Assembly: GCA_965219995.1 (NCBI GenBank)
Contig: CBDCOX010000002.1
Coordinates: 2,172,918-2,236,917, forward strand
DNA: 64,000 nt
Source of the DNA: Candidatus Latescibacterota bacterium
GTDB lineage: Bacteria > Latescibacterota > UBA2968 > GCA-2709665
Reading direction: 5' to 3'
Shown: one piece after another, positions 25,744 to 39,337 of the stretch
How positions within the stretch are numbered: position 1 is the first letter of the stretch
Layout: the number at the start of each line of letters is the position of its first letter
Made by a program: the position numbers and the translations under genes
Notes under the pieces: generated by a model
What the model saw: only the letters and a program-made list of their open reading frames with translations
Told to the model about the DNA's origin: nothing
The model's database searches: none

Positions 25744-26892
25744 CTACATCTCGCGAAGCATCTGGTAGAGATTGTGCAGAAAGACCCGGTTGTCGCCGTC
25801 GACATATACCATCTCCCCCCCCATTCGGCTGAAGGACTTACAGAATCTGAGATAGTACGCCGGGTTTTCCTTCGGCGGTTCGCCTCTCGACCAGTCCCAG
25901 GTCAACGGCGACAGATCGTTGACAACGATGAACGGGCGTACAACGCGCCTGTGTTTCTGAATTCGAAGGTTGTTGGCCAGCGAAAGGGCCTTTTCGAAGA
26001 CCTGCGGCGCCATGACGGCCGAGCCAACCGAGACAAACACGCCTCCGTCCAGATCGACGACACCGCGTGCGAACACCCGAAAGTCGACATCCGCGCCTCG
26101 CCCGATGGCCGCTCCGTTGGCGAGGTGGTGGTTGTGGATGATGTCGTAACCGATGCCCGGATGGACGGTAAGCGGCACGCCAGCCCGATAGGCCTGGCCC
26201 GTAACGGATAGGTCCTTGAACGGATGGTTTACCCGGCAGCGCCCATGGGGAATGTCGAAACGCAAAACGGCCTGGATCAGTTCCGCAACCGCCGGCATGA
26301 AGGGCGAATCCGCCGGTTCGTGGGCCCAATGGCGTAGCGCGGAGACCAGGTCGCTTCGATCGGGGATGTCACACCCGTTTTCCCAGATGAATTTTCCGAG
26401 GGATTCCCCGTAGCCCATGCCCTTCAGCGCGCCGGTGAGAACGGCCAGATGAATGTAGCGTCCGGTTTCCTCCCAGGTACCGAAACATCCCTGTGCGACG
26501 TTTGCCCGCACGTCTTCTTCCGATCGGCCATGAAAGGCGTATTCCCAGTCGTGAATCGTGCCGGCGCCGTTGGTGGCCAGATGGGTGATCCAGCCCGCGT
26601 CCATCATGCGGATCAACACCGGCCCCAGGCCGTTCTTGACCAGGTGCGCGCCGTATGCCAGCATCACGGAGGCGCCCCGCCGCCTGGCGCGTTGAATCTC
26701 TTCGGCGACCTGCCGGAGCCTGTCCGCCAGCGACCCGGGGTCCGGAGCGAGCGCGTCGGGGTCGACCATGATCTCGTCGATCGAGTACTTGCTGGCTCTC
26801 TCCGACAGAGGTCTGAGGACGACGTCGCGATGGTCGATCTGCGGGTAGGGCATTTCAACCGGTTTCCCTATCAGCCCGTTGATAAAGTTCAT
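25744..26892 (-). CDS. deoxyhypusine synthase-like family protein
   Basis: HLATNGAGTIHD and HNHHLANGAAIGRGAD resemble DHS motifs VTTAGGVEED and KHHIANANLMRNGAD; start set at MNFINGL to avoid overlap with downstream gene (ORF open to 27000). Confidence 0.5.
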   Translation of the reverse strand: MNFINGLIGKPVEMPYPQIDHRDVVLRPLSERASKYSIDEIMVDPDALAPDPGSLADRLRQVAEEIQRARRRGASVMLAYGAHLVKNGLGPVLIRMMDAGWITHLATNGAGTIHDWEYAFHGRSEEDVRANVAQGCFGTWEETGRYIHLAVLTGALKGMGYGESLGKFIWENGCDIPDRSDLVSALRHWAHEPADSPFMPAVAELIQAVLRFDIPHGRCRVNHPFKDLSVTGQAYRAGVPLTVHPGIGYDIIHNHHLANGAAIGRGADVDFRVFARGVVDLDGGVFVSVGSAVMAPQVFEKALSLANNLRIQKHRRVVRPFIVVNDLSPLTWDWSRGEPPKENPAYYLRFCKSFSRMGGEMVYVDGDNRVFLHNLYQMLREM

Positions 26893-26900
26893 CCGGGCTG

Positions 26901-27326
26901 TTATTCGGCCACCCAGACCCGCTTGAGTGGGACGTCGGGGGATTTCAAGACGCCGCCGTAGATCGTCACGGCGGTGATTTTTCCGTTCTGCATCCGGCAC
27001 ATATGCACTTCGGTAGCATCCAGATGCTTGCCGTACATTGCTTCGGGCAGTCCGGGAAGGGGCTGGTTTACGATACCCCTGAAGAAAAACTCCACGGCGA
27101 CCATGTCGCGGTCTGCAACGACATTGAGAATCTCGAGCCGCATGTCCCGCTCTTCCTCGTGACAGCCCTGCCAGAGCGCCACCAGTTTGTCCGCGCCGCG
27201 GATATCGAGTCCCCCTCCCTGCATGGTCGCGTCATCGTCGTACGTTTCACGAAGGCGCTTCCAGTCACAGGCAAAGGCGGCTTCGAGTGACTCCCGGGCA
27301 ATTTGCGCATTGGATTCGACTGACAT
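26901..27326 (-). CDS. SnoaL/NTF2-like (ketosteroid-isomerase fold) protein
   Basis: 141 aa, ...VAVEFFFRGI...TVYGGV pattern typical of SnoaL-like polyketide cyclase fold. Confidence 0.55.
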   Translation of the reverse strand: MSVESNAQIARESLEAAFACDWKRLRETYDDDATMQGGGLDIRGADKLVALWQGCHEEERDMRLEILNVVADRDMVAVEFFFRGIVNQPLPGLPEAMYGKHLDATEVHMCRMQNGKITAVTIYGGVLKSPDVPLKRVWVAE

Positions 27327-28183: not shown

Positions 28184-29590
28184 TCAGGACCTTTCCCGTG
28201 CCAGTCCATACTTCCGGTAGAAGTGGCGGAACTGGTCGTAGCTCAGACTGAGCGATTCGGCCGCCCTGCGCTGGTTCCAGTTGGAATTGGACAACGCGCT
28301 CCTGAGCAACCCGAGCTCGAAAGCCTTGACCTGGGCGTCGAACCCGTCTCCCGGCGGCGCCGGATCTCCGCTGGTGATCTCCGCAGGCAAATCCGGGGGT
28401 TCGATGGACGTGCCCGTGGCCATGCACGCCGCGCGTTCCACTGCAAACTTGAGCTCGCGCACGTTCCCGGGCCATGGGTAGCCCTGCAGGTGTCGGAGGG
28501 CGCCGTCGGAGAACGGACGCATGGTGAGTCCCGGCACCTCCCGGACGATCTGCTCAACGAAGAACCCGGCAAGCGGCTGGATGTCTTCCCGCCGTTCGCG
28601 AAGCGGGGGAATGCGGATCACTTCGAAGCGGAGGCGGTCGTAAAGATCCTGACGAAAGCGGCTTTCGGCAATCTCACGTTCGAGATCGGCATTCGTGGCG
28701 GCAATGATCCGGACGTCCACGCTGGTGGACACGGCCCCGCCCACCCGTTGAATTTCCTGGTATTCGATGGCGCGAAGGACATTCTGCTGGAATTCGGGTG
28801 TGGTGTTGCCAATCTCGTCCAACAGCAGCGTACCGCCGTTGGCCGCTTCAAACCGCCCGGGACGGGCTTCAGTCGCTCCGGTGAACGCGCCTTTTTCGTG
28901 CCCGAAGAGTTCGCTTTCCAGCAGGTTGGCCGAAAGGGCCGCGCAGTTGACTTTAACGAACGGTCGATCGCTGCGTACTCCACCATAGTGGATTGCCGCC
29001 GCCACGAGTTCCTTGCCGGTGCCGGGTTCGCCGAGCACCAGAACCGGCCGGGGGATGGAAGCAATGCGCTGGGCCTGTTGCATGATCCTCAGCATCTGGG
29101 GACTGGCATTGACCGTCCTGTACTTCTTTCCGAATTCGTCCCGGTAGAATCGATTCTCGCGGTCCAGATCCTTCACACGGGCGTGAAGCCGCGCATTCTC
29201 TCTGAGGACGGCGAGTACCCGGTCGAGTTTCTCCAGGCTGAGTTCAAGCCGGTCCTCAATATAGAAATCCTTTTCGATAAAGTCCGATGCGCCCATGCGC
29301 AGGGCGGCTACGGCGTTCTCCACGGTACCCTTGCCAGTGAGAATGATCACCGGCATATCCGGCACGAAGTCGCGAATCTTCCGAAGGATATCCAGACCGT
29401 CCGCCTCGGCCGGTCCGAAGTCGATATCCAAAATGGCCATATCGACGTCCGAAACGTGCGCCTTCAGGTACGCGAATGCCTGACTTCCCGTTGGAAAGGC
29501 CCGCACGATCCTGCCATCCACCTGAAGGCTTCGCGTGAGCATGGCCAGTATTTCGGGCTGGTCATCGGCGACGACGATTTGCGCTTTCAT
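28184..29590 (-). CDS. sigma54-dependent response regulator (NtrC family enhancer-binding protein)
   Basis: Receiver domain (VADDQPEIL...D), AAA+ sigma54-interaction domain (GEPGTGKE..., GAFTGA), C-terminal Fis-type HTH. Confidence 0.9.
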
Positions 29591-29593
29591 GGT

Positions 29594-31288
29594 CTACTCG
29601 ATAAATTCCTCGGCCAGGGGCAGCCGCGAGGCGGACAACGGATCGCCGCTCCAGCCGATGCTGTCGGTTCCGGCGACCAGTTCGAAGTCCACCGGGAGAT
29701 CGATGCGGAATACGGCGCCCGCGCCCGGACGGCTGATCATCCGCAGGGTACCCCGGTGGGCGGAGACGATGCGCGAACAGATGCTCAGCCCGAATCCATT
29801 GCCTTTTTCCTTGGTGGAAAACCCGGGGTCGAAGATCCTGGACTGGATCTCTTCGGATATGCCCGGTCCGTTGTCTTCCACCTCGATGAATACCGACCCG
29901 CGCCTGTTGTCGTAACCGGCCTGTACCGTGACGGCGCCACGCTCATCAACGGCGTCCAGCGCGTTGAGAATCAGGTTCGTGACGGCTTCACGCAGCATGC
30001 CGGGATCGACCTTGACCTGCGGGACGTGCGGTTCGGATGCGAAGCGGAGAGCCGCGCCTCCGGTGCGGGTCGCGACGGCTTGCCTGATTTTGCCCACGAG
30101 TTGCGGAATATCCACGAGTGACGGATTCAGCGGATCCTGCTTCATGCTGCGCAGATAGGCCACCCACTGGTCGAAGATGTGTTCCTGGTCGCGAGCGATG
30201 TCTCGCAGGTCGTCGAGTACGGCGTCGTGCTTCGAAACGCTCCGAATAAGCCGGCGTGTGCGGCTCCCCACCAGACCCATCAGATTCTTGATCTGGTGCC
30301 CCCGGGTGTACAGGCTTTCTCCCACCTGTACGCGTCCCATGTCGATGAGTTCAAGAGACAGGCGCGCCAGCACCGAGGCTGCCTGCGTACCGAATTCTTC
30401 GATGATGGCGGTATACTCCTGTTCCATCTGGGCCGAACTCTTGTGACCGAAGAGAAGATGCGCCAGGTTTCTGTAGGGTAGCGCATAGTCCGGCTCGAGC
30501 TGGATGGCAATCTTGAACGCGCCCAGGGCCTGGAGGGTCTGACCTGTTTGCATGAGCAAAACACCGAGGTTATTGTGACCCGGGGCGAACAGCGGATTTG
30601 CTTCCAGCCCGCGACGGTAAACTGTGATGGCCTCGTCCATGTTTTCCGGAAGGTCGTCGAGAAAGCTGGCCAACAGGAAACAGGCGCCGTCCACGTTGTC
30701 GAAGGGCACGCCACGGTCCACGGCCTCGAGAATAGACCGAAGCGCTTCAACCGCCTGCTGCCGGCCACTCGATCCCGAGGTCGCGCTCTCGGCCCGCAAG
30801 AGCGCCAACTGCAACTGCGCCTCCAGATGGTCCGGATTCGTTGCGATTGCAGACTCAAAGGCCTGCGCCGCTCCTTCAACGCCTCCTTTCAACCGGCAGA
30901 GACCGATCTTGTAATGCAGGTCCGCCCCAATCTCCGGCGCAAGTTCCAGGCAACGCGTGAAACATGCCAGCGCGTCCTGCCAGTTGCCTTTTCTGAAATG
31001 GACCGCGCCCAGGTTGTGGCGCGCCCGTACGTTCCCTTCATCGGCCGCCAGGGCGGCCAGGTAGGCGGCCCGGGCTTTCGACAGGTCGCCCGCTTCCATC
31101 GCGTTGTCGCCGTCACGACCGCGCCGCCTGGCTTCGTCGTTCGCCGATTCCGGCAGGGTCTGTGCGATGCCGATACGGTCGGCAGCCGCGGGTCGGCTGT
31201 CGGATTTTTCGGGTCGGTTCAAATCGTTGCTCCACGATGAAACGCTAAGAAGCTGTTTCCGATGCGCCCGCGTCGTCGCCGTTTGCAT
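29594..31288 (-). CDS. cytoplasmic TPR-repeat sensor histidine kinase
   Basis: N-terminal TPR repeats; HisKA H-box and HATPase_c (NLILNALDA...GxGLGL); no TM segment; alternative start ATG 31099 (MEAGDLSKARAAYL) would remove the 44-nt overlap with the flotillin gene. Confidence 0.8.
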   Translation of the reverse strand: MQTATTRAHRKQLLSVSSWSNDLNRPEKSDSRPAAADRIGIAQTLPESANDEARRRGRDGDNAMEAGDLSKARAAYLAALAADEGNVRARHNLGAVHFRKGNWQDALACFTRCLELAPEIGADLHYKIGLCRLKGGVEGAAQAFESAIATNPDHLEAQLQLALLRAESATSGSSGRQQAVEALRSILEAVDRGVPFDNVDGACFLLASFLDDLPENMDEAITVYRRGLEANPLFAPGHNNLGVLLMQTGQTLQALGAFKIAIQLEPDYALPYRNLAHLLFGHKSSAQMEQEYTAIIEEFGTQAASVLARLSLELIDMGRVQVGESLYTRGHQIKNLMGLVGSRTRRLIRSVSKHDAVLDDLRDIARDQEHIFDQWVAYLRSMKQDPLNPSLVDIPQLVGKIRQAVATRTGGAALRFASEPHVPQVKVDPGMLREAVTNLILNALDAVDERGAVTVQAGYDNRRGSVFIEVEDNGPGISEEIQSRIFDPGFSTKEKGNGFGLSICSRIVSAHRGTLRMISRPGAGAVFRIDLPVDFELVAGTDSIGWSGDPLSASRLPLAEEFIE

Positions 31289-32756
31289 TTGCGTCGCCGG
31301 TGGCTTTGCCCAGAAACTCGGGCAACTCCAGGCCCGCCAGTTTGGCCAGTTCGTGCATTGGCGGGATGGCGCCCATCAGGCGCTGCCCGAGATTGGACAT
31401 GCCGCCCTGTCCGCCGCCGCCGTCCCAGACCATGATTTTCTCCAGGGGGAGATTCTGAATGGCTTCCGCCTGAATGCCTGCGACCTCGGTCAGACGCTCG
31501 ACGATGAGGAAGGCCGCCGCAGCCTGGTCCTTTCCTCCGCACGCGGCCACCAACTCCTTGTAACCCTCCGCCTTGGCATCCAGAATGGCCTGGGTACCCT
31601 CGGCTTCGGCTCGCTTTTGGGCGAGAATTGCGGCGGCCTCCCCCTGCGCCACCAGCGTCCTCTGCACCTTCTCTGCCTCCGCCTGTACAACCAGCTTCTG
31701 TTTTTCCGCGTCGGCCTGTACCACAATTTCGGCTCTCAACCGGGCTTCTTCCCGGAGCGCCCGGGCTTCCTCGGCCTCTTTTTCGGCCCTTTCCTGCGCC
31801 ACCCGGATCGCGCCGTCCGCCGCCTTCGCGGCCTCCTGCCCCTGTTGCCGTGCAACCTCCTCGGCCACTTTCTGCCGGGCCATATAACCGGCTTTCTTGG
31901 AATCGGCATCGGCCTCCGCCTGTACCGCTTCCGCATCCAGAGAAGAAACCATCTGGCGTTTGTTTCTGGTGGCTTCGGCCTCGCCGATCTGGGCTTCAGA
32001 TTCCAGGGCGGCCACCCGCTGGCGGCGATCCCTGGCCGCTTCGGCCTCGCCGATTTCGGCGGCCGCGTTCGCGGCCGCCACGTCGGTGCGCTGGTCCCGT
32101 TCCCGCTCGGCTACACCCACCTTGCCCATCTTCTCCTGCTCGGCCACGTCGATTGCCGCCTGGTTGATGGCTTCGGCTGCGGCCTTTTGCCCGAGAGCCT
32201 TGATATAACCGCTTTCGTCTTCTATGTCCTTGATGTTCACGTTAATCACGGCCAGGCCGATTTTTTCCATTTCGGTAGAGACCGCTTCATTGACCTTGGA
32301 CATGAATGCCTGCCGATCCTGGTTGATTTCTTCAATTTCCATCGTGGCGATCACCGCCCGCATCTGGCCGAGGATGATGTCCTGCGCCTGACTCTGGATC
32401 TGGTCGCGAGAGAGTCCCAGGAGACGAATCGACGCGTTCTGCATCACGCCCATCTGGTTTGATACGGCCGCTGTGACGGTTGTGGGAACAGACACCCGGA
32501 TGTTCTCCTGCGACAGGGCGTTGTCCAGATCGATGGGAACAACGAATGGCTCAAGATCCAGATACTCATAGTCCTGCAGGAGAGGCAGCACGAAGGCCGC
32601 GCCCCCGTGAACGCATTTTGCCGCCCCTTTTCCTGTTTTTCCGTAGACGACCAGAATCTTGTTGGACGGGCACCGCTTGTACCTCGAAATAAACGTCACG
32701 AAGAGCAGGAACACCACCAGCAGCAATATAATTGTCAATACGGTCTCGGTTGACAT
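31245..32756 (-). CDS. flotillin / SPFH (band-7) family protein (YqiK/FloT-like)
   Basis: N-terminal TM helix, SPFH domain, long Ala/Glu-rich coiled-coil (AEAAARDRRQRVAALESEAQIGEAEA...) typical flotillin. Confidence 0.85.
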   Translation of the reverse strand: MSTETVLTIILLLVVFLLFVTFISRYKRCPSNKILVVYGKTGKGAAKCVHGGAAFVLPLLQDYEYLDLEPFVVPIDLDNALSQENIRVSVPTTVTAAVSNQMGVMQNASIRLLGLSRDQIQSQAQDIILGQMRAVIATMEIEEINQDRQAFMSKVNEAVSTEMEKIGLAVINVNIKDIEDESGYIKALGQKAAAEAINQAAIDVAEQEKMGKVGVAERERDQRTDVAAANAAAEIGEAEAARDRRQRVAALESEAQIGEAEATRNKRQMVSSLDAEAVQAEADADSKKAGYMARQKVAEEVARQQGQEAAKAADGAIRVAQERAEKEAEEARALREEARLRAEIVVQADAEKQKLVVQAEAEKVQRTLVAQGEAAAILAQKRAEAEGTQAILDAKAEGYKELVAACGGKDQAAAAFLIVERLTEVAGIQAEAIQNLPLEKIMVWDGGGGQGGMSNLGQRLMGAIPPMHELAKLAGLELPEFLGKATGDANANGDDAGASETAS

Positions 32757-33052
32757 GACAATCCCTCCTCGAATGAATCTGTCACCAATGTTGAAGCTTG
32801 ATTCGTCATTATTCGGGGTCGTTAATTCGAAGTTGTGCAGAATAATAAAAGCGATTGAACTGCTGATTTCCAGGAACCTTCAGGTCACCGGACGCGAACG
32901 GAAAAAATGTCCTTCCGGACGACCCTTTCGGCCCGTTTCGAAAGTTTTCTCCACAGTGTCTGCTTGCTGGATTCTTCGATGCAAGGCAAATCGACGCAAG
33001 AGGCACAAGAACAGCGAAAAGGTTGAGTACCGTCGTCTCAGCCAAATTGCAG

Positions 33053-33658
33053 TCAGGACAACAGCGGCTCGACCTCCAGCGTTGTCGTATCCACCACGCG
33101 AAGAACCCTGACCGGTGTCTTTGCGGAGATGGACATCCCGTTTTTGCCGCGGGCCGATACGTAGGCGACCGCCCCGCTCTCCATCACCCGGACCTGTCCG
33201 TTCCCGCATTGGGGGATGTCCAGATATACCTCACCAGAGGTTCCCACGCACGTATCCAGATTGGCGTTTCCAGTCTCGGTGAGCTTCCGGACATTGTGGA
33301 AGAAATAGGCAACGACCCCCATGCCTGCACTGCCCCAGACAAACGCGTAAAACACTGCCGTCCGAACGTCCAGACCTCTCTCCAGATACAGAGCTCCCGC
33401 CCATCCGAACAACATGCCAAAGGCGATCAGAGACCTGATAGACAGCAGTTTGAATGCCGCCACCGTGCCGTCTCCCGGTCCGTCGTTCAATTCGGGACCC
33501 GCGTCGCCAAGTTCCGCGTCGCCATCAATGCCGGCGTCGGACCCGCCCAGGCCAAAAAGGGCTGCCAGGAGTTGCCAGACAAAAAACGCGCTGAAAAACG
33601 CCGCCAACACGTAGAACGCCTGGTTGAGGACGCTCAGATCTGTCCACCATCCATCCAT
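33053..33658 (-). CDS. NfeD/YqiJ-family membrane protein (flotillin partner)
   Basis: Multi-TM N-terminus and C-terminal OB-fold-like soluble domain; upstream of the flotillin gene as in the E. coli yqiJK pair. Confidence 0.65.
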   Translation of the reverse strand: MDGWWTDLSVLNQAFYVLAAFFSAFFVWQLLAALFGLGGSDAGIDGDAELGDAGPELNDGPGDGTVAAFKLLSIRSLIAFGMLFGWAGALYLERGLDVRTAVFYAFVWGSAGMGVVAYFFHNVRKLTETGNANLDTCVGTSGEVYLDIPQCGNGQVRVMESGAVAYVSARGKNGMSISAKTPVRVLRVVDTTTLEVEPLLS

Positions 33659-33876
33659 GTCCGGCTCCTTTCCCGGGATCGTCCTCGTGTTGCACGCGGC
33701 CGGATCATCTGAAACGCCGCCGTGCTGCGAAATGTGACATAGAATGTACTTCGCGTCAATACAAATTCGCGACGGTTTTCGCCGGAGTTCTGACCTTCAT
33801 TGCGGTCGAAGCCCAGGGTGCCCCCCGCCAAATCCGTTCCTCGAACTTGTGCGCCGGGACTCCGGGGTCCACGTGT

Positions 33877-34452
33877 TCACGAGGGAACCAGCCCCCGCTT
33901 TCTGAATTCACCCTTCAATTGAAATCTTCCTCGGTTGAGCCAGGTCTTGACCGTGCCCATCGGAATCTGCAACTCCCTGGTAATTTCCTCGTAGGACCGG
34001 TCTCTCACGTAGCGCATCCAGAGTACTTCCCGATACCTGGACGGCAATGACCGAATGCTCTTCCTGACCAGGTCCCGGTGCTCGTTTCGCTGGACGGACA
34101 GTTCAGGGTTCTCGCCTGGTGCAGGCCTGCGTGTGGCGTCGGCAAGAGCAGCCGGATCCTCCGTTGTCTGAATCCATTTTCGCCGTACCTGCTGTTTGCG
34201 AAAATGGGACTTGTGTACGTTGAGCGCGATCTGGGTGAGCCACGTGGCAAAGGCTGCCTCCCCGCGGTACGAGCCGAGGGCCAGAAATGCCCGCAGAAAG
34301 GCAGTCTGCATCAGGTCCTGCGCGGTATCGGGATCGCTCGTTCTGCGAACCATCGTGGCGTAGACCTGTTCGTGGCAGGCTTTGTAAAGGTCTCCGAAGG
34401 CAGCCGCGTCTCCCGCGACTGCTTTCCGGATCAGATACCGTTCGTTTTCCAT
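33877..34452 (-). CDS. ECF-type RNA polymerase sigma-70 factor
   Basis: Region 2 (FGDLYKACHEQVYATMVRR...DLMQTAFLRAF) and region 4 HTH (SYEEITRELQIPMGTVKTWLNRGR). Confidence 0.85.
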   Translation of the reverse strand: MENERYLIRKAVAGDAAAFGDLYKACHEQVYATMVRRTSDPDTAQDLMQTAFLRAFLALGSYRGEAAFATWLTQIALNVHKSHFRKQQVRRKWIQTTEDPAALADATRRPAPGENPELSVQRNEHRDLVRKSIRSLPSRYREVLWMRYVRDRSYEEITRELQIPMGTVKTWLNRGRFQLKGEFRKRGLVPS

Positions 34453-34483
34453 TAGCGGGATATCCTTTCGAAAGGACGGTCGA

Positions 34484-34659
34484 TTACCTGGAGTCGCTGG
34501 TAAGCAGCCGGTAACCCACGTAAATCAGGACAATCGAAACTGACAATTTAAGGAGCAGGAAAAGGATTTCCAGAGACACGCCGATCAGCTTGATCGCTTC
34601 GAAGATGCCGAGGTACGCGCCGATGCCGATCAGGATGATGCCGAGAATCTTCGCGAACA
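34484..34659 (-). CDS. small hydrophobic membrane protein (58 aa), not in supplied ORF track
   Basis: Hand-translated MFAKILGIILIGIGAYLGIFEAIKLIGVSLEILFLLLKLSVSIVLIYVGYRLLTSDSR; AAGGAAA RBS 6 nt upstream of ATG 34659; sits between PspB-like genes and the ECF sigma gene. Confidence 0.4.
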
Positions 34660-34780
34660 TGGGATTTCCTTTCTTGTACCGATTTATTGCAGTTAGCGAA
34701 AATCCAGCCAGGGAATCGGGACAAACCGCGAGACCCTTTCAGCCGGGGTTTGCACAAGCGTAAAACCGTCTTAAGGCCAA

Positions 34781-35158
34781 TCAGCCACCTGGATTCTTGG
34801 CTTCCGATCGGCTCAGTTTGTCGTCCATCGAAATGAGTACGTCCTGAACGTCAGTGACCCTCCGCTCCAGATCGTTCAGGCGGGCATTGAACGCTTCCGT
34901 CTGCTGCGCGCCGATTCCGCGGGACTGGCCCCCGGCACGGCGTTTCAGGAAGATCACGACGCTGCCGAGGGTGAAAACTGACACGGCACCGATTACGGAG
35001 ATCGCCAGAATTCCAAGCGCGATATCCATGGCGAATCTCCCGAAGCCGAAATGGCGCGTCGGTGCCAGAGGGTCGCCGAAGAGAAACTTCAGCGTTGCCA
35101 TGCCCAGGAGAAACAGAACAAAGATGATGGCGGCCTTCGTCGCGAATTCTCGTGTCAT
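34781..35158 (-). CDS. PspB-like membrane protein, paralog 1 (2 TM + C-terminal conserved helix)
   Basis: C-terminal FNARLNDLERRVTDVQDVLISMDDKL motif shared with two neighbouring paralogs and pattern-similar to PspB/PspC leucine-zipper helix; AAAGGAG RBS 8 nt before ATG 35158. Confidence 0.65.
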   Translation of the reverse strand: MTREFATKAAIIFVLFLLGMATLKFLFGDPLAPTRHFGFGRFAMDIALGILAISVIGAVSVFTLGSVVIFLKRRAGGQSRGIGAQQTEAFNARLNDLERRVTDVQDVLISMDDKLSRSEAKNPGG

Positions 35159-35189
35159 CAGGATCACTCCTTTCTATCGCAGCCCAAAC

Positions 35190-35765
35190 CTATACTTTCG
35201 TTCGGTCCCTTCTAAGCCCCTCGTCCAGGCTGATGATGACCTCCTGGAGATCGTTCAAGCGCTGGTCAACGGTATCCAGCCGCTCTTCCATTCGTCTCGC
35301 CCGGTCCGGACTCATCCCCTTGCCCTCCCGCTTTTTCCTGAGGTGTATATAGCTCACCAGACCCCCGGCGAAGATGATCAGGCAGATTCCGATGCCGATT
35401 TCCATTGCGATACCAAGACCGGTTCCGGATCGAACCAACTCGAGACGGTCCGCGACGCCTTCAAGTTTCCTGGCGGCCGATTCTAATCGCCGCTGGTTGT
35501 CCAGGAGTAGACTCACGCCTTCGTCCGACAGACCACTTGCACTACCGACCTCGGTCGGTCCCGGTATATAATCAGCATCCGGCAGCACGTTCCATCGGTC
35601 AGACGTGAAGGCCCAGATTGCGAACCCGACGGCCGCCACCGCCAGGAAGATCCCAACCGTTGATCCGCTCGGCTTCTTGTTACCGGGGGTCATCAGGTAG
35701 ACTGAATACCCGCCCGCAACCATCAGCAGGCAAAGGGCTAACGCCAGTTCCAGTATCCAGCTCAT
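35190..35765 (-). CDS. PspB-like membrane protein, paralog 2
   Basis: N- and mid-protein TM segments, C-terminal MEERLDTVDQRLNDLQEVIISLDEGL motif; GAGGAGGGA RBS. Confidence 0.65.
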   Translation of the reverse strand: MSWILELALALCLLMVAGGYSVYLMTPGNKKPSGSTVGIFLAVAAVGFAIWAFTSDRWNVLPDADYIPGPTEVGSASGLSDEGVSLLLDNQRRLESAARKLEGVADRLELVRSGTGLGIAMEIGIGICLIIFAGGLVSYIHLRKKREGKGMSPDRARRMEERLDTVDQRLNDLQEVIISLDEGLRRDRTKV

Positions 35766-35832
35766 CGTGTTCCCTCCTCTTGTTTCCCGGACTTATGCAA
35801 ATCAAGCGGATAAATTCATACCTGTCAGAGAT

Positions 35833-36207
35833 TTACACGACCTTTCTCAGCTTGCTTGCAGTGGCGTCCGGTCCGGCGGCTCCCGGGTCTGCCTTCTTGA
35901 GGACACCAGACAGTCTCGTGGTCCTCAGTGTCTTGTCGACACTTCCGGATACGCCGCTCAACTTCAGTTCGCCGCCTGCGCCCCTGACAGTCTTCAGACC
36001 GCTGATCAACTCTCCAATCATGGCAGCGCCGACAAACTTCAATTTTGACAGGTCGACCACGACCGTCCGGGCCCCGCTGTTCGCCAGGTTTCGTATTTTG
36101 CGTCGCAGCGGCGCCACTTCCGACCTGGCGACGGGGTCGCCGCTGACGGAGACAATGACCGCTCCGCCCTGAATGCGTTCGCCGACGTCAATGCGCCTCG
36201 AATTCAT
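35833..36207 (-). CDS. STAS-domain anti-sigma-factor-antagonist-like protein (non-phosphorylatable)
   Basis: MNSRRIDVGERIQGGAVIVSVSGD...VVDLSKLKFVGAAMIGEL: SpoIIAA fold, but the conserved Ser/Thr position carries Ala (GAAM instead of DSSG); AGAGGGA RBS before ATG 36207. Confidence 0.7.
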   Translation of the reverse strand: MNSRRIDVGERIQGGAVIVSVSGDPVARSEVAPLRRKIRNLANSGARTVVVDLSKLKFVGAAMIGELISGLKTVRGAGGELKLSGVSGSVDKTLRTTRLSGVLKKADPGAAGPDATASKLRKVV

Positions 36208-36298
36208 CGTACAATCCCTCTTGTTTTTGTGTAAATCCGGTCCGCGTGGGACAGTCCGGTGATTCCTGCCATTGGATTTCATCCGATTCCGGCGTCCC

Positions 36299-36514
36299 TT
36301 ACGACGTTTCCCCCGGGCTTCCTCGATCGAGCTTTTCGTCGATCGCGATCATGATTTCCTGGATATCGGTAAGCCGCCGATCCAGGTCGTCCAGCCGGGC
36401 GTTCAATCGATCCTCGACTTTGCCGGGCACGGAACCCTTGGTCTGTCGATCCACATATTTCAGTACAGCCGACGCAAGAACAATCAGCGCAACGCCAACA
36501 CCGACTTCAAACAT
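36299..36514 (-). CDS. PspB-like membrane protein, paralog 3 (71 aa, single TM)
   Basis: MFEVGVGVALIVLASAVL TM then VEDRLNARLDDLDRRLTDIQEIMIAIDEKL; GGAGGGA RBS. Confidence 0.7.
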   Translation of the reverse strand: MFEVGVGVALIVLASAVLKYVDRQTKGSVPGKVEDRLNARLDDLDRRLTDIQEIMIAIDEKLDRGSPGETS

Positions 36515-36540
36515 GACATCCCTCCGTCATATGCAGGATT

Positions 36541-37170
36541 TCAGAGTTCATCCACTGGTTTTGCCTGGCGTTTTTCCTGACCGCGTTCAATTTCAGGAAA
36601 ATAGTACACGACGAGTCCGGATTCGGAGACGCGCACCTCGGCGCTGCCTTTCTCGCCCAATGTGCGCAGGATCTCCTCCGCCTTCTCTACGGTCATCCGC
36701 CCATCGGTTGCGGCTTCCAGCACGGTGAGGCTGCCTCCCTTTTCGCGGGCGAGCCTGAGCAGGCGATGCTGATATTGCGCATATCGCTTCCGGTCGGCCG
36801 ATTCGTGCGCCGTGCGTCCCGCAAGCCTGAATACAAGCGCGCCGGTCAGGGCCAGGATAAACAGCAACGCCTCCGGGTGGAACGAGCGCTCGACAATGCC
36901 GATGACGAAGGGGACAATCGCGGCGAATACACACAAGATCGCGGCAGCTTTCAGGAAGTGTCCGAGGACGTATCGCATGTCGCAGCTCCAATTGATGGCC
37001 ATGTCCGAAATCCGAGTCGACAGACCCGCGGACCGTGCACGGCAAGCCTGACGCGGGTATTGCCGTCCATCGCCGCCCTTACGGGCCGCCTCCACGGCCT
37101 TTTTCGCATCGCGTACGGCATTCCTGACTTCATACGCGATCTCGTCCAGAATTTTCTGTACCTCACGCAT
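36541..37170 (-). CDS. membrane protein translationally coupled to pspA (function unknown; LiaI/PspM-like role inferred)
   Basis: Start ATG overlaps pspA stop (ATGCGTGA, 8-nt overlap); amphipathic N-terminus, 2-3 TM helices, C-terminal soluble domain. Confidence 0.6.
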   Translation of the reverse strand: MREVQKILDEIAYEVRNAVRDAKKAVEAARKGGDGRQYPRQACRARSAGLSTRISDMAINWSCDMRYVLGHFLKAAAILCVFAAIVPFVIGIVERSFHPEALLFILALTGALVFRLAGRTAHESADRKRYAQYQHRLLRLAREKGGSLTVLEAATDGRMTVEKAEEILRTLGEKGSAEVRVSESGLVVYYFPEIERGQEKRQAKPVDEL

Positions 37171-37840
37171 CGGACTTGCGCATCCTGTCTTTCAGGGCCT
37201 GCAGTTCCTCTTCCACGGTGTTCTGCCGTTCCAGCTTTTCGAATGAGTCTTCGAGCGAAGGATCTTCTCCCGCAATTTCGGCGTGCGCATGGGCCTCTGC
37301 TTCTTCGGTCTCCACCCGATTCCGGAAGCGCTCAAAGCTCGAAAACGCGTCGTCGCCGACACCCGAAAGTCCCTGGGCGATCTGCTTTCTCGCCTGAGCG
37401 GCGCGACGCCGGGCGATAAGAGCGCCCTGACGGGTGCGTGCCTCGTCCAGTTTGGATTTGAGTTGCGTTAATTGCTTCTTGAGCTGATCGGAGGTCTTGT
37501 GGCTTTCGTCGAAAGCGACTTCCAGATCCAGGGCGGCTCTTTCAACCGCGGCTTTTCGTTCCAGCGCGCGCCGCGCCAGGTCGTCTTCGCCGGACTCGAC
37601 GGCCAGCTCGGCCTTCTTCTGCCAGGACTCGATCTGGTCCGTCTTGTCCAGCAATTGACGCTCAAGGCGTTTTTCGTTGGCAACGGCGGTGCCGACGGAC
37701 GCGGTTGCCTTGTTGACGGCCTCTTCCATTTCAAGGATCATCTGCCGGATCATCTTTTCCGGATCTTCGGCGCGATTCAGAAGATCGTTGATGTTGGCCT
37801 TGACGATGTCCGCCATGCGGGAGAAGATTCCTTTGGCCAC
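37163..37840 (-). CDS. pspA: phage shock protein A / IM30 / Vipp1 family protein
   Basis: MAKGIFSRMADIVKANINDLLNRAEDPEKMIRQMILEMEEAV... canonical PspA N-terminus, coiled-coil throughout. Confidence 0.9.
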   Translation of the reverse strand: MAKGIFSRMADIVKANINDLLNRAEDPEKMIRQMILEMEEAVNKATASVGTAVANEKRLERQLLDKTDQIESWQKKAELAVESGEDDLARRALERKAAVERAALDLEVAFDESHKTSDQLKKQLTQLKSKLDEARTRQGALIARRRAAQARKQIAQGLSGVGDDAFSSFERFRNRVETEEAEAHAHAEIAGEDPSLEDSFEKLERQNTVEEELQALKDRMRKSDA

Positions 37841-37931
37841 TGTCTTTCTCCTTTCTATCGTAGGCTTCTTGACCCCACGAGGGTGGAAAAATCCGATTTC
37901 CTGTAATTATTCAAGGTCCTGCCGACATTCC

Positions 37932-37947
37932 TTGCAAGTATCGTACC
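37932..37947 (-). promoter_or_regulatory. putative sigma54 (-24/-12) promoter for pspA operon
   Basis: Minus-strand GGGTACG-ATAC-TTGCA vs consensus TGGCACG-N4-TTGCW, ~95 nt upstream of pspA ATG; locus encodes a sigma54-dependent activator. Confidence 0.45.
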
Positions 37948-38215
37948 CGTTTTACAAAATAGGCGATCCCGATGTTAAATGTCGGTATTTACTGGCTTTA
38001 TACTGACACGTGAAATCATGTCACCAATAGAAGTTGGTGAAAAACGCCGTACACAAGGCGAAAACGACCGGATCGAATGGCCGTGGAGTGCCTGATCATG
38101 AACGGAGCCGGCTTGTCTTTTGGGGACAAATGGCGTAATATCTGGGGTGTTCTGCCGGTTGAACCCGACCGGTGCGGTCGCTGTTTCATTCGAGTCTCCG
38201 CGTTGGACCATAGTC

Positions 38216-39337
38216 ATGAAAAACTGTCGCCATCTGCGTCTGTTCAGTGTCGCACTCTGCGTGGTCATGTTGCTTGCCAGCCCCCTTGCCGGGCTCTCGC
38301 TTGTACACAAGGTCCGGAAAGGGGAATCTCTCTGGTCCATTGCCCGGCAGTGGGGAACGAGCATCCGGGAGATCAAGCGAATCAACAAGCTGCGCACCAA
38401 CAACGTCTATCCGGGCCAGGTGCTACGCCTGGGCGCGCGGATCGTCAAATACGACGCGGCGAACGGTCCGTACTACTGGCGAAAGCCGAAGGCGTCAAGG
38501 CAAAGGCACCGGAACTATTCCGAAAGGGCGCGCTCCGCCCCGAGTGTGGATTATCGCCGGGCCCAGGCCCTTTTGCGCGCCTTCGACAACGAGATTCTCG
38601 CCAAGGCGCCCAAGAGAAGAAGGAAACCGCTGAAGGGCTGGTGGATCGTGCTCGACCCGGGGCACGGCGGCATCGATCCGGGCGCGATCGTTTCCAATTT
38701 GACGGGCAAGAAACGACGGGTCTACGTGGTCGAAGACGAATACGTGTATGATATTGCGCTGCGAATGTACAAGAAACTCCGGCTCCTGGGCGCGGAGGTG
38801 ACACTCACGGTGATCAGCCCCAATCATCTGATTCGGGAAAACCAAACGGCCAAAATTACATTTGTCCACGAAAAGAACGAAGTCTATAACGATGAACGGT
38901 ACAACCGGAGGAATTCGGAGAAGGTACGCCCCAGGAGCGCCAATATCTCACAGCGCGTCCGGGTTGCAAACCGCTTCGTCAAGCGGGCGCGCGGGGGCAG
39001 GAGCCTGTTTGTCTCGGTACACGCGGACAACACTCCCGGACGATCCAGGGGGCCCCTGGCGATCTATCATAAACGGCGGGGCAGGGTTGACAGCCGGTCC
39101 AGGGCGTTCGCCCGTGTCATGCGTTCGGTCCTGCACCGGCGGGACCTTCCGGCTCGGGTTCAGGGGCGGAACCTTGCGGTATTGCGGAACAATCTGGCCC
39201 ACGCGGAGATTCTGGTCGAGGTCCACAACGTCCACTATACGCACGACGCCTATCAGATCCGGTACCATGAACATCGGGAGCGCGACGCGGATCGGCTGGT
39301 AAACGGCATCCTGGCGTATGCCAGAAAACGTCGATGA
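38216..39337 (+). CDS. LysM-domain N-acetylmuramoyl-L-alanine amidase (Amidase_3 family)
   Basis: Signal peptide MKNCRHLRLFSVALCVVMLLA; LysM (HKVRKGESLWSIARQWGTSIREIKRIN); amidase motifs LDPGHGGIDPGA...SVHADN. Confidence 0.8.
   Translation: MKNCRHLRLFSVALCVVMLLASPLAGLSLVHKVRKGESLWSIARQWGTSIREIKRINKLRTNNVYPGQVLRLGARIVKYDAANGPYYWRKPKASRQRHRNYSERARSAPSVDYRRAQALLRAFDNEILAKAPKRRRKPLKGWWIVLDPGHGGIDPGAIVSNLTGKKRRVYVVEDEYVYDIALRMYKKLRLLGAEVTLTVISPNHLIRENQTAKITFVHEKNEVYNDERYNRRNSEKVRPRSANISQRVRVANRFVKRARGGRSLFVSVHADNTPGRSRGPLAIYHKRRGRVDSRSRAFARVMRSVLHRRDLPARVQGRNLAVLRNNLAHAEILVEVHNVHYTHDAYQIRYHEHRERDADRLVNGILAYARKRR

Follow-up and report, generated by a model that had tools for sequence, protein, structure and literature searches.

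A Psp-type locus of Latescibacterota with predicted two-component, sigma-54-dependent control of pspA

How membrane damage is sensed and passed on to PspA/ESCRT-III repair proteins is unclear beyond a few model bacteria. This question is raised by a block of twelve genes on the minus strand of a 64,000-nucleotide stretch of a Candidatus Latescibacterota genome (contig CBDCOX010000002.1, positions 2,172,918 to 2,236,917; here called the window), in which pspA stands at the upstream end and a histidine kinase and a response regulator stand at the downstream end (Table 1). Latescibacterota is a member of the Fibrobacterota-Chlorobiota-Bacteroidota (FCB) group, in keeping with the original guess of an FCB origin, and no paper naming both Latescibacteria and PspA was found in the literature searched. 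The original prediction described the block as a composite twelve-gene module for the sensing and repair of membrane damage. That proposal is partly supported: a conserved core of five parts was recovered from it, but the flotillin/NfeD, sigma factor and STAS genes proved to be lineage-specific, and the link between PspA and flotillin had already been published. The locus is probably a Latescibacterota form of the Psp (phage shock protein) system, in which a two-component phosphorelay would take the place of a free PspF and small membrane proteins would report to the kinase. The core regulatory wiring is well supported by sequence comparison.

Conserved core of the locus and its predicted promoter

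The twelve open reading frames (ORFs) were present in the ORF listing of the window in the order, on the strand and over the interval (28184-37840) first reported. Strand does not bound the block, as the epimerase and SnoaL genes continue on the minus strand 29 nt past the regulator gene. Nine of the twelve original gene labels were borne out by searches with hidden Markov models, among them those of PspA, the STAS protein, the extracytoplasmic function (ECF) sigma factor, the flotillin, the tetratricopeptide repeat (TPR) kinase and the response regulator. The label NfeD found only weak support, and three labels of the type 'PspB-like' found none. Transmembrane (TM) segments were predicted in the two ORFs that had been labelled simply as a coupled membrane protein and a small membrane ORF, and both are genuine ORFs.

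The window proteins were compared by BLASTP with all ORFs of the loci L001-L038, of which L012-L038 came from a species-level scan with an alignment of the kinase. Approximately 40 related loci have the same five-part core; their sources are metagenome-assembled genomes (MAGs) that carry the label Latescibacterota or Gemmatimonadota, and metagenome contigs without a label. The core consists of pspA, a gene for a membrane protein with a winged-helix domain (here MemWH), one to five genes for small membrane proteins with a common helix (the helix module), the TPR kinase gene, and the gene of a regulator with a receiver domain (REC) and a sigma-54 activation domain. This order was kept wherever the contig reaches, as seen in L007, L008 and L012-L038, and about 27 genomes at the species level have it. 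In the distant loci (L007, L008, L019-L038) the identity to the window proteins was 61-64% for PspA, 55-59% for the regulator, 40-47% for the kinase and 36-49% for MemWH. As these distant loci have different flanking genes, the gene order appears to be under selection and not a trace of recent common descent. The expectation that synteny would be found in relatives was thus confirmed for the core, but flotillin/NfeD, the ECF sigma factor and the STAS protein were missing from the distant loci. With one genome taken per species, full-length kinase orthologues were found only in MAGs labelled Latescibacterota or Gemmatimonadota (L012-L038).

The PspA of the window is 39% identical to E. coli PspA (E=2e-43), and it scored 185 bits against the TIGR02977 model, under the equivalog cut-off of 243 bits. 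In the kinase, the H-box YT(R/K)GHQxKNL was invariant among orthologues of 43-84% identity, and the DxGPGI and GNGxGLS motifs were conserved. The HisKA model of Pfam gave no match in the kinase, though GHQ(I/L)KNL is invariant; the best matches of the kinase core were AtoS and ZraS. The kinase has no input domain apart from its TPR repeats. No TM segment was predicted in the kinase or the regulator, and the description of the kinase as cytoplasmic was therefore right.

The regulator gene starts 3 nt after the end of the kinase gene. The domain matches listed in Table 1 for the two proteins upheld the claim of a receiver-bearing activator with a TPR kinase as its partner. The domains of the regulator are PF00072, PF00158 and PF25601, with a weak HTH_8 match (E=0.012), and its GAFTGA motif was invariant among the regulators compared. 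Its best NCBIfam model was PspF (TIGR02974), at 343 bits against a cut-off of 443.55 and over residues 162-389, and its AAA+ domain is 44% identical to that of E. coli PspF. According to PMC6003685, PspA represses PspF through residue W56 of PspF. In five Latescibacterota regulators the residue at the corresponding position is S, S, R, A or Q, that of the window being Ser.

A sigma-54 element of the -24/-12 type was predicted upstream of pspA, at 37948-37933, and the right end originally given for the block (37947) coincides with it. The element is unremarkable when the window is taken alone, as 18 matches with two mismatches were counted in the window and about 22 were expected. Exactly one NGGNAN-N5-NTGCN element was found 61-139 nt upstream of pspA in all 33 loci with a placeable pspA start, at a background rate of 0.11 per 350 nt per strand, and it is this conservation which makes the promoter of the window convincing. 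In the distant loci the element is a textbook TGGCAC-N5-TTGCA. When the strict form TGGCA[CT]-N5-TTGC[AT] was searched on both strands of 1.3 Mb, 18 of the 19 matches were located at pspA. Within the block no other intergenic sigma-54-like site was found, the remaining high-scoring matches being inside coding regions. The sole strict match away from pspA in 38 loci (TGGCAT-N5-TTGCA, L009 at about 9361, minus strand) could mark a further member of the regulon.

In 16 distant loci (L019-L032, L035) a pair of TGGC-N7-GCCA palindromes spaced 21-22 bp apart precedes the promoter by about 110 bp, and a single site was present in L008, L034, L036 and L038. A pair of palindromes upstream of the promoter is the usual layout of sites for enhancer-binding proteins. 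Binding of the regulator to the upstream palindromes is predicted from this arrangement of sequence elements. In the window, a palindrome of the TGTC-N7-GACA form and a degenerate site at 38035-38049 are the candidate activator sites.

These data bear on whether the neighbourhood of the genes has any meaning at all. Sigma-54 regulators often act on distant targets, and the promoter and binding sites are predictions, so that the kinase-regulator pair might serve another sigma-54 regulon and stand next to pspA by chance. This was judged the least probable of the explanations considered, and highly improbable in itself. The order is kept at 40-47% kinase identity between different flanks, the promoter is at pspA in every locus that could be scored and in nearly all strict matches, and the palindrome pairs are placed as expected for activator sites.

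Small membrane proteins, MemWH and a proposed signalling path

The slot between the MemWH gene and the kinase gene holds, in the window, three genes whose products were found to be true paralogues. All three combine a TM segment with a basic stretch and a C-terminal helix, and they are 33-40% identical over this module; the helix common to the three reads RLxxRLDDLDRRLTDIQEVIISxDEKL, and the conserved cytoplasmic helix of the small proteins is ERRLTDVQDVMIALDEKL. A profile search of 1.84 billion cluster representatives recovered 236 clusters of the helix-module family (E<=1e-3), which is unnamed, and in its ERRLTDxQD core the residues R, R, D and Q are nearly invariant. The helix is joined to diverse N-termini. 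These range from a bare TM segment (71 aa) and extra TM segments with a loop of about 60 aa (191 aa) to a signal peptide with three or four periplasmic repeats (L009 and L097; 251-276 aa), and fusions to CBM9 domains (six members, E down to 1e-9) or to a TM2 domain were also observed.

In L001-L038 the module ORFs, one to four per locus, were found nowhere but after MemWH and before the kinase or ECF gene, and L097 holds five. The proteins had been described as triplicated, but this does not hold as a property of the system, since copy number varies from 1 to 5 among relatives and even inside the clade of loci closest to the window (the window clade). The helix-module genes (34781-36514 in the window) seem to be a recombination hotspot, with one, two or three copies in near-identical genomes. 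A non-coding remnant (…LDTVDQRLNDLE…) lies between the STAS and 58-aa genes of L001 (10685-10842), and P0039-P0042 are chimeras in which the helix of paralogue 2 is joined to that of paralogue 1. These chimeric and remnant ORFs point to recombination between paralogues.

The original label 'PspB-like' was not sustained for these proteins. The three paralogues matched neither PspB (PF06667, TIGR02976) nor PspC (PF04024) in Pfam up to E=10 or in NCBIfam up to E=1, and PspC was not matched by any of the twelve block proteins. In a Pfam scan of 145 family representatives, a single one matched PF06667 (E=1e-3). Alignment of the helix-module and PspB profiles with hhalign gave a probability of 25% over 14 columns, with a PspB profile which was shallow, drawn from Enterobacteriaceae only and of low diversity (Neff, the effective number of sequences, 1.35). 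PspB homology was rejected on these three results, a rejection that is not final as the PspB profile is shallow.

The small proteins might still be very divergent true PspB, in a pspF-pspA-pspB system whose PspF has gained a receiver. They take the same place after pspA as PspB, their predicted topology, with an N-terminal TM segment, a basic stretch and a cytoplasmic helix, is also that of PspB, one of the 145 family members matches PF06667, and the hhalign match pairs RLNDLE with RIQALE. Unrecognised divergent PspB domains have been reported outside Proteobacteria (Ravi et al.), and the PspA and AAA+ domain of the window are close to the E. coli proteins (39% and 44%). Against this stand the blank searches of the window paralogues, the 144 of 145 members without a PspB match, the low hhalign probability, and the lack of a PspC partner anywhere in the block. 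This origin is considered unlikely. That the small proteins work like PspB is plausible from their topology and genomic position, but the statement that they are PspB fails the test.

The genomic contexts of four diverse family members (P0147, P0173, P0115 and P0181) were looked up, and in all four the module was located one to six genes downstream of pspA; two further look-ups (P0059 and P0117) fell on contigs of less than 1 kb and are outside this count. Three of the four (L094, L096 and L099) represent a second, different type of pspA locus, with the order pspA, a TM2-domain protein ending in the helix module, then a protein with CBM9 or another module. As the module stands beside pspA in this second type too, the helix-module family appears to be a recurrent partner of PspA and not an accident of the window. 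A TGGCAT/TGGTAC-N5-TTGCA promoter of their own and a TGGC-N7-GCCA site are present in L094-L096. Further along L094 and L095 come genes for a single-domain receiver, for an FG-GAP protein and for a 1137-aa protein with Reg_prop and sigma-54 activator domains. The loci of this type lie at L094 6874-9341, L096 1854-4579 and L099 1617-4084.

MemWH is encoded directly after pspA in every kinase-linked locus, and in the window its gene overlaps pspA by 8 nt. Its family comprises 178 clusters, all unnamed, which lack a precomputed Pfam domain except for two weak HTH_IclR entries. An AlphaFold2 (AF2) model built with database homologues (predicted local distance difference test, pLDDT, 74.5 overall and about 88 in the winged-helix part) shows an N-terminal helix and two long TM helices before the C-terminal domain. 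Foldseek returned generic winged helices (MarR, IclR, TFE, ESCRT-II SNF8), each at E of about 1e-2, and weak winged helix-turn-helix (HTH) matches in Pfam were obtained for 7 of 14 members. MemWH is likely to be a membrane anchor or adaptor for PspA, in the role of LiaI or YdjG/H.

The resemblance of MemWH to SNF8 is intriguing because PspA belongs to the ESCRT-III superfamily. Chains of human SNF8 were matched by residues about 145-200 of MemWH, its C-terminal domain, at E=0.55 in the profile search and in Foldseek with 3cuq_A at a root-mean-square deviation of 1.6 Å over 60 columns (30% identity, E=1e-2). These matches are statistically level with those to other winged helices, and the modelled likeness to ESCRT-II is only a lead. 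A more far-reaching proposal, which is tentative and more doubtful than the Psp reading given at the outset, is that the helix defines an unnamed family of PspA-associated membrane reporters docking on the TPR array of the kinase, and that MemWH is a membrane-anchored winged-helix nucleator of PspA polymers, comparable in function to ESCRT-II in its recruitment of ESCRT-III. If this were true, the outward parts, be they a short loop, periplasmic repeats, CBM9 or TM2, would detect differing kinds of insult to the envelope, and a three-component signalling design would control a bacterial ESCRT-III protein.

For the Psp system with two-component control that is preferred here, the following path is proposed. 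The small membrane proteins, which are variable outside the cytoplasm and near-invariant in the inner helix, would report the state of the membrane or envelope to the kinase, conceivably by contact of this helix with the TPR array. The kinase would phosphorylate the regulator, and this would bind the upstream palindromes and open the sigma-54 promoter. From there pspA, the translationally coupled MemWH gene and probably the downstream genes would be driven. As the kinase and regulator genes would be among the latter, a positive feedback might result.

Several observations weigh against this reading. The whole scheme is sequence prediction from MAGs of an uncultured phylum. Gaps of 120, 218 and 296 nt separate genes between pspA and the kinase gene, and read-through across them is only putative. 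The promoter of the window is a weaker match than those of the distant loci, with GGGTAC instead of TGGCAC, and the activator sites of the window clade have diverged to TGTC-N7-GACA and are not strictly kept in every member. The conserved helix could bind PspA instead of the kinase, as PspB and PspC do, or MemWH or the STAS protein. Despite the absent W56, PspA may also feed back on the regulator through another surface.

Table 1. Genes and predicted control elements of the pspA block, with positions in the window.
Feature	Position	Strand	Basis or remarks
Candidate activator site, palindrome TGTCCCCAAAAGACA (TGTC-N7-GACA)	38114-38128	-	288 nt upstream of pspA start; position kept in window clade
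Second candidate activator site, degenerate, CGGCGTTTTTCACCA (TGGCGTTTTTCACCA in relatives)	38035-38049	-	block conserved across window clade
Sigma-54 -24/-12 element GGGTACgatacTTGCA	37933-37948	-	108 nt upstream of pspA start; sequence prediction
pspA, 225 aa, GTG start	37163-37840	-	PF04012 (PspA_IM30), E=9e-48
MemWH, 209 aa, two long TM helices and cytoplasmic C-terminal winged helix	36541-37170	-	AF2 model, Foldseek
Small bitopic membrane protein, paralogue 3, 71 aa, TM segment and conserved cytoplasmic helix	36299-36514	-	paralogue comparison
STAS protein, 124 aa from ATG 36207 (maximal ORF to 36282)	35833-36207	-	PF01740, 5e-9; TIGR00377, 2e-12
Small membrane protein, paralogue 2, 191 aa, three TM segments, loop of about 60 aa predicted outside cytoplasm, same C-terminal helix	35190-35765	-	
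Small membrane protein, paralogue 1, 128 aa (125 aa from ATG at 35158, as in relatives)	34781-35167	-	
58-aa protein with two TM segments	34484-34660	-	precedes ECF sigma gene in every case
ECF sigma factor, 191 aa	33877-34452	-	Sigma70_r2 (PF04542), 2e-14; Sigma70_r4 (PF08281), 2e-13
57-nt conserved block, probable independent promoter or operator	33727-33783	-	alignment, 10/10 clade members; about 70 nt between its end and nfeD, which lies downstream
NfeD/YqiJ-like protein, 201 aa, three TM segments and C-terminal beta domain	33053-33658	-	gene immediately precedes that of flotillin
Flotillin (FloT/YqiK-like), 503 aa, N-terminal TM segment	31245-32756	-	Band_7 (PF01145), 1e-27
Soluble TPR histidine kinase, maximal ORF 564 aa (542 aa from TTG at 31222, per relatives)	29594-31288	-	HATPase_c, 3e-24; many TPR models
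Response regulator, REC, sigma-54 AAA+ (GAFTGA) and Fis-type HTH	28184-29590	-	Response_reg, 2e-20; Sigma54_activat, 1e-62; AAA_lid_14

Lineage-specific genes within the block

The remaining genes of the block, those of the 58-aa protein and ECF sigma factor, of the STAS protein and of the NfeD-flotillin pair, are add-ons outside the conserved mechanism. The best models for the ECF sigma factor were of the SigW type and remained under their cut-offs (NF007223 SigW, 4e-34), while TIGR02937 was over its cut-off. The pair of the 58-aa protein and the ECF sigma factor was present in the window clade, and also in L017, whose kinase is 65% identical, and the lineage of L009, L011 and L097; in L017, L009, L011 and L097 the pair is conserved at 46-48% identity. 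No anti-sigma domain was detected in the genes neighbouring the ECF sigma gene, and the sigma factor may be regulated by the 58-aa protein, as a minimal regulator of an unusual kind.

The STAS protein was found in the window clade and in L010 and L097, and was restricted to lineages that contain the ECF sigma factor. When it was aligned with SpoIIAA chains, FVGAAMIG stood opposite FMDSSGLG, so that Ala-Ala occupies the place of the two DSSG serines. Neither an RsbW-type kinase nor a PP2C phosphatase was found in the block.

It was also considered whether these genes form a partner-switching module unrelated to PspA, with the small membrane proteins or the 58-aa protein as anti-sigma factors for the ECF sigma factor and the STAS protein as their antagonist. 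The STAS protein does match models of anti-sigma-factor antagonists and occurs only together with the ECF sigma factor, and no canonical anti-sigma gene adjoins the ECF gene. The small proteins are present in every locus without the ECF and STAS genes, and also stand by pspA in the second, ECF-less locus type; for this reason the small proteins were rejected as anti-sigma factors. In addition, the STAS protein lacks phosphorylatable serines, its usual kinase and phosphatase partners are missing from the block, and Pfam detected no anti-sigma domain in the small proteins or the 58-aa protein. A module of this kind is very unlikely.

The NfeD-like protein was matched by PF01957 only at E=0.11, with three predicted TM segments. 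A single-sequence AF2 model, which was poor (pLDDT 56), contained three TM helices and five C-terminal strands. No similarity to E. coli YqiJ was found by BLAST, and a profile search of PDB gave only an irrelevant match (E=0.18). The flotillin matched the FloT model at 2e-40, under its cut-off, and E. coli YqiK by BLASTP at 7e-11. The genes of NfeD and flotillin were found only in the window clade (L001-L006, L012-L016, L018), where kinase identity is 79-84% and synteny extends to the flanking amidase, epimerase and SnoaL genes. As the pair is limited to a shallow clade with syntenic flanks, its retention could be plain inheritance. The conserved 57-nt block before nfeD suggests separate transcription of nfeD-floT. 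A shared ECF-type promoter before the 58-aa/ECF pair and before nfeD was considered and rejected; both regions have a G(C/A)AAACC-like element, but its spacing and the -10 parts disagree.

Whether all twelve genes work as one integrated machine for damage sensing and repair, in which flotillin/NfeD, the ECF sigma factor and the STAS protein are obligate and co-regulated with PspA, can be weighed on these data. The genes share a strand, and terminator prediction on the coding strand gave none in an intergenic gap of the block, the total predicted count being not above that of shuffles. The ECF pair lies within the operon, with short gaps, in three sub-lineages, the full set is present in 10 of 10 members of the window clade, and there are published precedents for PspA with SPFH and sigma-W (PMC8581546) and with flotillin/NfeD (PMC9239133, PMC11237479). 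About 20 distant loci keep the core without flotillin/NfeD, ECF and STAS, and flotillin/NfeD is confined to one shallow clade with syntenic flanks. The 57-nt block and a 218-nt gap stand before nfeD and a further gap of 296 nt before floT, and the 58-aa gene and nfeD have no common ECF-type motif upstream. Integration of all twelve genes therefore appears rather unlikely, if a little less so than a PspB origin of the small proteins.

For the Psp core with later additions, the simplest history suggested by the distribution of the sequences would be that the additions entered step by step between the small-protein genes and the kinase gene, the 58-aa/ECF pair first, STAS next and flotillin/NfeD last. 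By analogy with the sigma-W regulon of B. subtilis, the additions would plausibly extend the response through an ECF cascade and a flotillin membrane scaffold.

Relation to described systems and to the flanking genes

Like the pspF-pspABCDE system of E. coli and Yersinia, the locus has PspA as the effector (39% identical to that of E. coli), a predicted sigma-54 promoter with candidate upstream activator sites, an activator whose AAA+ domain is nearest to that of PspF, and a gene for a small membrane protein of the N-out/C-in type after pspA. It differs in that the activator has an N-terminal receiver and a kinase partner, and so is not the receiver-less PspF. The activator gene lies at the 3' end on the same strand and is not divergent, W56 is not kept, no PspB, PspC, PspD or PspE profile was matched in the block, and an extra protein, MemWH, is coupled to pspA.

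The Bacillus LiaFSR-liaIH system is similar in the two-component control of a PspA homologue, in the small membrane anchor (LiaI, comparable to MemWH) and in the accessory membrane protein LiaF, which modulates the kinase, the role proposed here for the small helix proteins. However, LiaS is membrane-bound with a HAMP domain and the kinase of the window is soluble with TPR repeats, and LiaR, a REC-HTH protein with a winged HTH according to Ravi et al., acts at a sigma-A promoter, whereas the regulator of the window is a sigma-54 enhancer-binding protein. The Pfam domains LiaI-LiaF-TM and Toastrack (DUF4097/DUF2154) were not found in any of the block proteins. Regulators of the NtrC/AtoC/ZraR type share the REC-AAA+(GAFTGA)-Fis HTH architecture, the adjacent kinase and the palindromic upstream sites. 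In the window, by contrast, the input of the kinase is a cytoplasmic TPR array and not a periplasmic or PAS sensor, and the predicted target is pspA.

The set of an ECF sigma factor, PspA, an SPFH/flotillin protein, an NfeD-type partner and membrane anchors of PspA is also that of the sigma-W regulon of B. subtilis. In that species, yuaFGI (nfeD2-floT) belongs to the sigma-W regulon. Its members are in dispersed operons, whereas the genes of the window are nested in a pspA operon under predicted sigma-54 and two-component control; the ECF sigma factor of the window is SigW-like and scores below the cut-off, and ECF control of nfeD-floT is not claimed. The sigma-W-controlled pspA-ydjGHI operon needs an SPFH protein to put PspA on the membrane (Scholz et al. 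2021, PMC8581546). PspA occurs with Band7/FloT and NfeD in Acidobacteriota (Popp et al. 2022, PMC9239133), and a further survey described PspA with flotillin and YqiJ/YuaF, duplications of PspB, NtrC-like activators bearing ACT/PAS domains, and two-component systems whose regulators are of the HTH type (Ravi et al. 2024, PMC11237479). These neighbourhoods resemble the window in bringing together pspA, a flotillin with TM and Band_7 parts, and a YqiJ/NfeD-like protein with three TM segments. They differ in that they come from Proteobacteria and Acidobacteriota and centre on CesT/Tir-PspA dyads, AAA+ ATPases or HTH regulators, and none has the TPR kinase, the REC-sigma54 regulator, the helix-module proteins or MemWH.

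The original suggestion that the combination is an undescribed one was therefore correct for the wiring by receiver and TPR kinase, which was not found in the literature, but not for PspA with flotillin and NfeD or for PspA with SPFH and the ECF factor sigma-W, links which are published. A PspF-like activator with REC together with a TPR kinase, the helix-module family and MemWH were not described in the two large Psp surveys or in the other literature searched. The lineage would offer a modular and genetically simple alternative to the known designs, with a soluble kinase taking its input through TPR repeats, interchangeable small proteins and a PspF-like activator controlled by phosphorylation. 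If confirmed, this would be a third regulatory solution for Psp, beside titration of PspF and LiaFSR, and would add two new families of PspA partners (the helix module and the winged-helix protein with two TM segments) and a case of stepwise attachment of an ECF sigma factor and a flotillin/NfeD scaffold to a Psp operon.

Some further observations concern the surroundings of the block. A divergent gene (38216-39337, plus strand) encodes an N-acetylmuramoyl-L-alanine amidase with LysM and Amidase_3 domains and a signal peptide. In the window clade and L017, and not in the distant loci, this gene and pspA share a control region of 375 nt. In L006 (7998-15165, on an 18-kb contig of 2x coverage), the gene at the position of flotillin (509 aa, no Pfam match on record) is followed by unrelated small HTH genes and not by the kinase and regulator genes, which may represent a rearranged variant or a misassembly of this low-coverage contig. 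At the other end of the block, the distance between the regulator and epimerase genes, 29 nt in the window, is enlarged by an insertion of about 5 kb in L012 (13040-18394) and by insertions of 0.7-0.9 kb in L014 and L016. An ORF of 418 aa (25744-27000, minus strand) had weak, sub-threshold matches to Rossmann domains of the ArgZ-like (E=2e-5) and deoxyhypusine synthase (E=3e-3) kinds. Relatives also have it downstream of the SnoaL gene, without a Pfam annotation.

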